Below are positions 279-2,662 of a stretch of 2,662 bases of DNA, in pieces. A model generated the notes under the pieces. That model was given only the letters and a program-made list of their open reading frames with translations. It was not told where the DNA came from and did no database searches. Position numbers and translations under genes: made by a program. Source of the DNA: Escherichia phage 21; sequence record AF017626.1; one strand, written 5' to 3'. Every line of letters begins with the position of its first letter. The first letter of the stretch is position 1.

Positions 279-730
279 CTATGCTGTTTTGATATCTACG
301 ATAATCCAGTCTTTACCACGATCATCATTGTATCGGTCGGTCATTTTTCTGGATTTATGGCCTAACAACTTTTGCGTATCCAGACCCTGTTCCCGATATA
401 ACCGTTCTGACAGAGATCGCTGCTCATGAAATGTGGGCGCAGTTCCTGGCTCCCATTTTATGCCACATTTTTCCCTGGCCTTTTTAAAAGCCGTTGTAAG
501 AGTATTTGCAGAAACCTGGTCTCCTCTGTTTGCTTGAGAGGTAGTGTGACGGTAATGGACCAGATATTTACTAACAACAGCATCCCTGCACTGAGATATA
601 ACTTCACGAAGGGTAATATTCAGAGCATCGCATTTCAGGCTAAGCGGAATAGCAAGTTTTGAACCGGTTTTTTCCTGAGTAATGTGCAACATGTCGTCCC
701 ATATATCAGAGAATTTCAAATTGCAGATAT
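279..730 (-). pseudogene. int: Phage integrase (lambda Int family tyrosine recombinase), C-terminal catalytic portion, separated from its N-terminal part by an IS insertion
   Basis: Minus-strand translation ...ICN-LKFSDIWDDMLHITQEKTG...TFHEQRSLSERLY...LLGHKSRKMTDRYNDDRGKDWIIVDIKTA* aligns with the lambda Int C-terminus (MKWSDIVDGYLYVEQSKTG ... HELRSLSARLY ... LLGHKSDTMASQYRDDRGREWDKIEIK). The H-x-x-R, H and Y catalytic residues are present. Stop TAG at 279-281. The 'M' at 719 in the ORF track is a TTG codon internal to the gene. Confidence 0.85.
728..730. repeat. Target-site duplication TAT (left copy) of the IS insertion
   Basis: TAT immediately outside the IS end at 731; an identical TAT lies at 2041-2043 just outside the other end. 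Confidence 0.7.
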
Positions 731-772
731 TGAACCGCCCCGGGTTTCCTGGAGAGTGTTTTATCTGTGAAC

Positions 773-1663
773 TCAGGCTGCCAGATCATCGTTTCCGATG
801 GAAGCATAATAAGCTTTTTCTGCTTCTGCCGGAGGAGTATGGCCCAGCCTTTCCAGCAATCGTCGATTGTTATACCAGTCCACCCACGTGAGTGTGGCCA
901 GTTCCACTTCTGCACGGTTTTTCCAGCTCTTACGGTGTATTACCTCCGCTTTGTAAAGACCATTGATGCTCTCCGCCATCGCGTTGTCATACGAGTCGCC
1001 TGTACTTCCTGTTGATGCCAGTAATCCGGCTTCCTTAAGCCGCTGTGTGTAGGCCAGCGATACATACTGAGAACCTTTATCACTGTGATGGACCGTGCCG
1101 GACGGTCGACGGGCCCATAACGCCTGCTCCAGTGCATCCAGCACGAATGTCGTTTCCATGGACGATGAGACCCGCCACCCCACGATGTATCCGGCAAACA
1201 CATCAATGATGAACGCCACATAGACGAAGCCCCGCCATGTGCTGACGTAAGTAAAATCAGCCACCCACAGCTGGTCAGGTCGTTCTGCCACGAACTGACG
1301 GTTTACGCGGTCGCCTGCGGCAACGGCTTTCCGGCTGATGGTCGTACGGACCTTTTTACCCCGGAGAACACCGGCAAGTCCCATAACCGCCATGAGACGT
1401 GCCACAGTGCATCTGGCCACTCTGATACCTTCCCGTAACAACTGACGCCAGACTTTACGCACACCGTATACCTTGTGATTTTCATCGTATACGCGCTGTA
1501 TCTCTTTCTTCAGCCAGTCATCGCGCTGCGCACGGGCACTGCGTTTATCCGGATGATGTCGCTGTTGCTGACAGTGGTAATACGTTGACGGGGCAATATG
1601 CAGTTCGCTGCATAGCGGTCCGACCCCGTACTGCTCACGCAGCTTATCCAGCAGTGGCATCAT
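773..1663 (-). CDS. IS3-family transposase OrfB (DDE catalytic domain), probably expressed as an OrfAB fusion by -1 frameshift
   Basis: 296-aa ORF with DDE motifs ([33 protein letters not shown]). Its frame is -1 relative to orfA and stays open upstream to 1726. The ATG at 1661-1663 overlaps the orfA stop (ATGA) within an A6 run. Confidence 0.9.
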
Positions 1664-1986
1664 TTTTTCCAGAGGCGGTCGAACTCCGCCTTCGCAAAAT
1701 AAGCGGAAGCCTGGCGAAGGATATCGTTACTGCGGCGCAGTTCACGATTTTCACGTTCCAGCTCTTTCAGACGCTGACGTTCAGCGGTGGTGAGCCCTCC
1801 ATCACCGCCCCCGGTATCCCGCTCATGCTGGCGAACCCAGACACGCAGAGTCTCCGGCGTACAGCCAATCTTTGGAGCAATGGAACAAATTGTCGCCCAT
1901 TGTGAGTCATATTCGCTCTGACTTTCCAGAACCATACGGACTGCCCGTTGACGGACTTCGGGGGAAAAACGAGTATTTTTAGTCAT
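1660..1986 (-). CDS. IS3-family transposase OrfA (helix-turn-helix plus leucine-zipper-like region)
   Basis: 108-aa [64 protein letters not shown]...[36 protein letters not shown], matching IS629/IS3411 OrfA as I recall it. ATG at 1984-1986 is preceded by a Shine-Dalgarno sequence (AAGAGG on the - strand, about 1991-1996). Confidence 0.9.
1663..1669 (-). other. Putative programmed -1 ribosomal frameshift site (A6 run, TGGAAAAAATGA on the - strand) at the orfA/orfB overlap
   Basis: Six consecutive A residues on the - strand (1663-1668) immediately before the orfA TGA stop. The orfB frame is open across this site. IS3-family elements typically frameshift at A-rich heptamers. Confidence 0.55.
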
Positions 1987-2040
1987 CCTGTTTACCTCTT
2001 TCTCAGGAAGTTTAGTCTCCAGGATTCCCGGGGCGGTTCA

Positions 2041-2043
2041 TAT
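2041..2043. repeat. Target-site duplication TAT (right copy) of the IS insertion
   Basis: TAT immediately outside the IS end at 2040, matching 728-730. Confidence 0.7.
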
Positions 2044-2662
2044 CGCCTAAACGTTGTCCAGTAACAAGAGCAAGTAGCATGCCGCATTTTAAATAGGGCT
2101 GCCGTCTGCTTACGCTTTCAAATATTGCCTGCCATTCGGGCAGTGATAATCTTTGGCGGTTTACTCGATTTCGCGGTTGTTTTGTTGCCTGCGCTGGGTT
2201 AAATCCTGGCGGAACATGTCCTGCGTGTTGTGCTTCTTTGAAGACGTCGATCAACACCATTCTCACGACTTGCGCCATCCTGTTATGACCTTCAGCCTTT
2301 ACAGCATCAATTATTTCGGCAATATCAAGTGCGGTAATATCCTTGAGGTGTTGCATTCCACAATGCTCACGGAAAAGACGAATGGGTTTACCTTTTTGCC
2401 GATAGGAGTTGGGTTTTAGTTCATTATGTTGCAGCCTGTCCTCCTGGATAGAAATATATTTATCAAGCCATTCTGTCACCGTAATGTCTGAGCGCCTGCC
2501 TTTCATTCTTTCTAGACGCTCATTGACGCTTAATATTTGTCGGGTACGTTGTTCAGCAATAATGGTATTTGCTTCAGTAGCAACTTGTTTTGCTTCATTC
2601 TCATCAGTTCCTAAGCTATGAAAACGACCGGATAGTGGATGTTTGTATTGCCAATATACCTT
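2041..2662 (-). pseudogene. int: Phage integrase (lambda Int family), N-terminal and central portion; 5'-partial (start codon lies beyond the window end), cut at 2041 by the IS insertion
   Basis: The minus-strand frame is open from the window edge at 2662: KVYWQYKHPLSGRFHSLGTDENEAKQVATEANTIIAEQRTRQILSVNERLERMKGRRSDITVTEWLDKY...LKCGMLLALVTGQRLGD. This aligns with lambda Int (...SVTLHSWLDRYEKIL...WLRLAMELAVVTGQRVGD). The ORF-track product's last residues (MNRPGNPGD) are read-through into the IS inverted repeat. Confidence 0.85.

Follow-up and report, generated by a model that had tools for sequence, protein, structure and literature searches.

The 2,662-nucleotide stretch of DNA analysed here at its full length (the window; sequence record AF017626.1, Escherichia phage 21) begins with the 3′ end of icd and continues, on the opposite strand, with a prophage integrase gene (int) that is split in two by an insertion sequence (IS) of the IS629 type. 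An earlier account drawn from the letters alone (the sequence-only reading) had placed the IS at positions 731-2040, next to a duplicated TAT, and had proposed that the int frame is restored once the element is taken out. Inspection of the sequence showed these limits to be exact. When positions 731-2043 were removed in silico and the minus strand was translated, we obtained one open frame of 356 codons, which ends at the stop codon at 279-281 and reads ...LALVTGQRLGD followed by ICNLKFSDIWDDML... across the joint. This frame passes the window end at 2662, leaving the 24 N-terminal codons of a total of 380 outside. The features of the window are collected in Table 1.

The interrupted integrase gene

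Searches with the reconstructed protein, of the kind that the sequence-only reading had called for, returned the Pfam family Phage_integrase (PF00589, E=8.5e-24) and the lambda arm-DNA-binding domain (PF09003, E=1e-16, with profile positions 1-25 falling outside the window). These matches, like those of the IS frames given below, show that the arrangement did not arise by chance. In a HMMER alignment, residues 5-378 of the 380-aa integrase pair with residues 4-356 of lambda Int (PDB 1z1b) at E=5e-56. The lambda Int motif reported earlier across the joint is present in this alignment, as is the complete set of six catalytic residues, with R228, K251, H332, R335, H355 and Y364 standing opposite lambda R212, K235, H308, R311, H333 and Y342. 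On these grounds we regard the split gene as encoding a lambda-type tyrosine integrase. It shares with lambda Int (PDB 1z1b, 1z1g, 5j0n) the three-domain layout as well as the active site and, as in lambda, the excisionase gene lies directly upstream of int in relatives. Lambda Int is nonetheless a distant homologue, since lambda-type records fall below 60% identity to the window integrase in tblastn searches; it has 356 aa and uses the gal-bio attB, whereas the window type has 380 aa, uses a site at the icd 3′ end and is interrupted here. Much closer integrases (98.7-99.2% identical, with an adjoining excisionase gene) are encoded by isolated lambdoid phages, among them ev017, 4A7 and PhiR57_1, and the split gene therefore belongs to a working phage integrase type.

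The IS sits between D231 and I232, three residues past the first catalytic arginine, R228 (lambda R212). Because it separates R228 from the other five catalytic residues, neither fragment carries a complete active site. As found, the N-terminal fragment consists of 231 Int residues extended by nine codons of the IS (MNRPGNPGD) up to a stop at 2012-2014, and the C-terminal fragment has no ATG, its sole candidate start being a TTG at 719. An equivalent C-terminal piece in genomes of enterotoxigenic E. coli (ETEC), to which we return below, is marked as a partial pseudogene by the Prokaryotic Genome Annotation Pipeline (PGAP).

The interrupting element is a complete member of the IS3 family, 1,310 bp long, with its transposase genes oriented as int is. 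Both of its ends begin with TGAACCGCCCCGGG in inverted orientation, matching at 14 of 14 positions at the tips and at 23 of 25 over the 25-bp terminal inverted repeats. The earlier description of the element as IS629-like is borne out by Pfam, by Rfam and by PGAP labels. The Rfam family ALIL (RF01497), a frameshift-stimulating pseudoknot, is matched over its full length (1-117) with 120.2 bits (gathering score 50, E=4.4e-32), and in an identical copy of the IS PGAP merges orfA and orfB via a programmed frameshift into a single product, WP_151327001.1. Copies of the same sequence, some of them cut down, carry the PGAP label 'IS3-like element IS629 family transposase', and these labels serve as a proxy for the ISfinder reference. 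The element has the length of about 1.3 kb, the imperfect 5′-TG...CA-3′ repeats, the overlapping orfA and orfB and the 3-bp target duplication that mark IS629, for which duplications of 3-4 bp are described (PMC3271280); the -1 frameshift between the two genes, ALIL and the rve/DDE domain of the reference element are likewise shared. We see no departure in structure from IS629, of which IS1203, the type common in E. coli O157, is a close relative; the window copy and the O157 copies labelled IS1203 by PGAP share about 96.3% identity. Its own 1,310-bp sequence occurs at 100% identity in diverse, unrelated complete E. coli genomes. A ranking of copies by identity, sampled at 60 evenly spaced rows, gave 100.0% for the first four, suggesting that the exact sequence is probably present in several hundred records.

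Table 1. Features of the window (positions as in the window; strand given where one applies)
Feature	Position	Strand	Basis
icd 3′ end, last 54 codons and stop	1-165	+	Pfam Iso_dh, E=1.5e-06; icd annotation in all relatives
attL/attR homology: icd 3′ end and its likely terminator	2-218		both ends of the ETEC 67-1 prophage, local alignment
Likely icd terminator: perfect 9-bp stem, 5-nt loop, then T-rich run	189-211	+	inverted repeat AACGGGCGT/ACGCCCGTT
Three direct repeats, period about 12-13 bp, core TTCCCCAAAAC	227-269	+	repeat search, 83-100% identity
Integrase C-terminal part, codons 232-380 and stop; K251, H332, R335, H355, Y364	279-730	-	
Target-site duplication TAT, copy 1	728-730		empty CE10 site has a single TAT
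IS629-type insertion sequence (IS3 family)	731-2040	-	terminal repeats; PGAP name on the same copy
IS orfB, 296 aa, HTH_21 and rve integrase-core catalytic domain	773-1663	-	open reading frame list; Pfam rve, E=8.3e-28
ALIL frameshift-stimulating pseudoknot across the orfA/orfB overlap, A-run GGAAAAAATGA	1589-1705	-	Rfam RF01497
IS orfA, 108 aa, HTH_Tnp_1	1660-1986	-	open reading frame list; Pfam, E=7.4e-13
Target-site duplication TAT, copy 2	2041-2043		direct repeat of copy 1
Integrase N-terminal part, codons 25-231, leaves the window	2041-2662	-	arm-binding, core-binding, start of catalytic domain with R228

The surroundings of int identify the window as the attL (left-hand) end of a lambdoid prophage integrated into the icd 3′ end, and the icd portion that it contains as the phage-borne replacement copy. 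In ETEC 67-1 the two ends of the prophage are homologous to each other over a segment (6002-6218 in the locus extracted from NZ_CP035826.1) that corresponds to window 2-218, within which the crossover site would lie, and a diverged second copy of icd, annotated as a pseudogene, marks the far end (attR). Integration at the icd 3′ end with a substitute 3′ end supplied by the phage is the arrangement of phage 21 and of the K-12 cryptic prophage e14, which, according to work reportedly from the Campbell laboratory, use the same icd site. The window element shares this arrangement, and the displaced bacterial icd copy that such elements leave as a pseudogene at the other end is seen in the ETEC relative. 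The likeness to phage 21 and e14 is one of integration site and layout; the closest sequenced phages are of the ev017, 4A7 and PhiR57_1 type. The window happens to start where the phage-borne icd copy starts, and this copy differs from those of the ETEC genomes at six synonymous-looking positions within icd, yet in relatives both versions lead to one and the same Icd accession. The stretch that separates the int stop codon from the att homology contains three direct repeats (AAAATCTTCCCCAAAACT and two variants). The P′ arm of lambda contains the arm-type sites P′1-P′3 in a similar layout, and the repeats are candidate P′-arm binding sites for the N-terminal domain of the integrase. Their middle copy is altered in the ETEC haplotype (positions 244-245).

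Uninterrupted alleles and the age of the insertion

With the IS and one TAT removed, the remaining 1,349 nt of the window are identical at every position (1349/1349) to E. coli O7:K1 CE10 (NC_017646.1, 1284179-1285527). There the icd end is followed by an intact 380-aa site-specific integrase (WP_000741328.1), including the first 24 codons that in our sequence would lie beyond 2662, and then by the excisionase gene. The same empty allele is present in AR_0013, N32 and AF57, again identical over all 1,349 nt and with an integrase that is intact by annotation; these genomes provide the comparison with IS-free strains that the sequence-only reading had proposed. More broadly, in a set of 5,426 complete E. 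coli genomes the site is uninterrupted in 1,630 (identity threshold 95%); both IS junctions were found in only six, the integrase being carried by about 1,636 genomes. A nominal 100% match of AF57 to the interrupted allele was rejected, as it is composed of three joined pieces and the IS adjoins xis rather than lying in int.

Given that IS629 is multicopy in this lineage and that multicopy repeats typically cause misjoins, one might ask whether the IS was wrongly placed into an intact int during assembly. We consider this exceedingly improbable. The perfect 3-bp target duplication is just what transposition leaves behind, the same architecture is present in six closed ETEC genomes, and a separate draft assembly has the same left junction: contig QOXY01000002.1 (GCA_003333855.1), whose chromosomal backbone is CE10-like, equals window 1-899 exactly and ends inside the IS, a break typical of short-read assemblies at repeats. 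This contig is independent support for a real structure.

The insertion is recent, as had been suggested before, because there are no substitutions in the 1,349 nt of flank relative to the empty allele, the duplication is perfect, and the ends, reading frames and pseudoknot of the IS are intact. Genomes of the CE10 type contain 33-39 matching places, and further IS629 copies lie in the very same prophage remnant: from 12196 onward in the CE10 locus as extracted, in AF57 (7719-9028) separating xis from the gene that follows and, as an extra copy, near iss′ in AR_0013 (26196-29264). Taken together, these genomes show an ongoing expansion of IS629, with IS-bounded deletions, in the lineage whose flanks are identical to those of the window.

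A shared insertion site in ETEC genomes

The six complete genomes with both junctions (67-1, 504239, TW11681, S1-NGR-02-A, WS1933D and LR883000) suggest, from strain names and origins (mostly human stool isolates), an ETEC lineage. In all six, IS629 occupies the same nucleotide as in the window (window 728-2043; 6728-8043 in the NZ_CP035826.1 locus) and agrees with the window copy in orientation and in the duplicated TAT. In the PGAP annotation of the ETEC allele an IS3-family transposase stands between two pseudogene pieces of the integrase. Their flanks differ from those of the window at 21 of 1,349 positions (1.55%), the IS being separated from the nearest differences by 90 nt on its left and 107 nt on its right, whereas the IS copies are identical at 1310 of 1310 positions where about 20 differences would be expected at the divergence of the flanks. 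Uninterrupted counterparts exist for both haplotypes, at 100% for the window (CE10) and at 99.9% in at least 20 genomes for ETEC; Z0117EC0117, RMDEC332 and UPEC132 (about 99%) were considered as empty precursors of the ETEC allele and rejected, having 15-26 differences. The chromosomal backbones also differ, the CE10 type alone having DUF1493/STM2901 genes in the interval from rluE to icd. In WS1933D (NZ_CP035836.1, 5143-8626 in the locus) a group II intron with an ltrA reverse transcriptase/maturase gene lies inside the IS629 that lies inside the integrase gene, and LR883000 gives the same split pattern of matches; this nesting would make the ETEC insertion older than that in the window.

A strong target motif as the cause of the shared site was rejected. 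Among 125 distinct flanks of the right end of IS629 sampled from IMG/VR there is no usable consensus, the bias being weak, with G at +1 (43% of sites), T at +2 (40%) and G at +5 (42%), and nowhere exceeding 0.13 bit per position, and no target motif was found for IS629 by Rump et al. (2011; PMC3271280). The same gene has been hit a third time, in the avian pathogenic E. coli (APEC) strain BEN5202 (NZ_LR740758.1, 4012-5321 in the locus), where IS629 lies in opposite orientation at approximately window 2324 and the N-terminal part of the integrase is gone together with neighbouring prophage genes. Its outward flank (TATTGCCGAAA, against TATCGCCTAAA in the window) is identical at 9 of 11 positions, the best agreement among the 125 sampled flanks. 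We regard this similarity as a curious post hoc observation.

The shared site suggests either independent insertion at one nucleotide or short-tract recombination. It is conceivable, though we lean against it, that the two alleles derive from one insertion event, homologous recombination or gene conversion having carried the IS from one haplotype to the other: chance re-use of a nucleotide should be rare a priori when neither the sampled flanks nor the work of Rump et al. reveal a strong motif, and a short tract could end within the identical sequence on either side of the IS. Such a tract could, however, measure about 1.5 kb at most, would have to end within some 100 nt of the IS on both sides, and must have passed between hosts with different backbones. 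Nor can the identity of the two IS copies be taken as proof of common descent, an argument that we rejected because the exact 1,310-bp sequence is widespread; the lack of differences fits two young insertions equally well. That IS629 has a true hot spot at the TAT separating int codons 231 and 232, hit independently in the CE10-like and ETEC lineages, appears rather unlikely to us.

Selection offers another way to account for repeated hits, if an int knock-out by IS629 were favoured for keeping a useful remnant anchored in the chromosome. The recurrence of an identical IS at one nucleotide and in one orientation on diverged flanks, the existence of a near-identical empty counterpart for each interrupted allele, and the additional insertion elsewhere in the gene in BEN5202 would all agree with events retained repeatedly, but the rarity of the insertion among the roughly 1,636 genomes with this integrase speaks against it. 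Prophages are in any case where IS629 tends to be found, with 62% of the O157 copies sitting within prophages or prophage-like elements (PMC3271280). Moreover, excision would restore icd from the bacterial copy, and locking the element in place thus brings no evident benefit. We therefore hold an adaptive origin to be very unlikely.

Consequences for the prophage

Lambda-type phages depend on Int to integrate as well as to excise. Since the gene is split between R228 and K251, we infer that Int activity is lost and that the element could neither excise itself nor re-integrate, short of a matching Int provided in trans or removal of the IS. The latter has a known route: the IS-excision enhancer (IEE) promotes excision of IS629 and can restore an IS-disrupted lacZ in O121:H19 (PMC9943667, PMC9397093), so that IEE would be a realistic route by which IS loss restores int. 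Inactivation of genes by IS629 is itself well documented in IS629-rich E. coli, and the window int is a case of the same kind.

The sequence-only reading had gone on to describe a prophage locked in the chromosome. Its premise, the loss of Int-dependent excision, is sound, but what is locked is most likely a remnant and not a complete prophage. The closest relatives (CE10, AR_0013 and AF57) carry only an IS629-riddled remnant without virion genes. In CE10 and AR_0013 the order is int-xis-exo-bet-gam-kil-cIII-IS629-iss′-nu1-A′-lom′ and then another prophage; the terminase gene A′ and lom′ are truncated, iss′ is a piece of iss, and repressor/immunity, replication, head and tail genes are missing. 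The remnant of ETEC 67-1, about 22 kb long and ending at the icd pseudogene, has rearranged lysis genes and no structural genes. Because the closest relatives already carry a defective remnant, the practical effect of the insertion is probably small. Two further features of the ETEC 67-1 remnant may be recorded here, namely an ompC-like porin gene amid inverted lysis genes and, just before the icd pseudogene, a pair encoding an AAA ATPase and McrC (10201-13274 in the locus), which resembles an McrBC restriction module.

The history that best accommodates these data begins with a prophage integrated in the icd 3′ end, the left end of which is the window. An active copy of IS629 then transposed into int, duplicating TAT between D231 and I232, with the result that no single polypeptide retains the full active site and that Int activity is probably lost. 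To judge from the relatives, this would have befallen an element that was already a defective remnant gathering IS629 copies, and hence would represent neutral decay in an IS629-expanding lineage rather than the silencing of a live phage. We put the probability of this explanation as a whole (a recent IS629 insertion in the int of an icd prophage, loss of Int, decay of a remnant) at roughly 93%. Some points weigh against it. The exact window allele has no match among the 5,426 complete RefSeq E. coli genomes; the statements that the integrase bears no other damage and that the element was already a remnant depend on relatives with identical flanks; and the loss of recombinase activity is deduced from what the two fragments contain.

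Insertion of an IS into a prophage integrase gene is a known kind of event and, on the sequence comparisons made here, belongs to ordinary prophage decay. In annotation, the IS together with both integrase fragments is best treated as one pseudogene interrupted by IS629, and for the prediction of inducible phages the element should be counted as a non-excising remnant. Beyond this, the insertion adds one more case to the erosion of prophages by an expanding IS629 and carries little weight. The sole point that perhaps merits more work is that two E. coli lineages have the IS at one and the same nucleotide, which draws attention because IS629 has been described as lacking target specificity. For the same reason, if a hot spot does exist between int codons 231 and 232, it would suggest that some structural or protein-directed cue in the integrase or att-proximal DNA guides targeting or, alternatively, that selection favours immobilised remnants of icd prophages.

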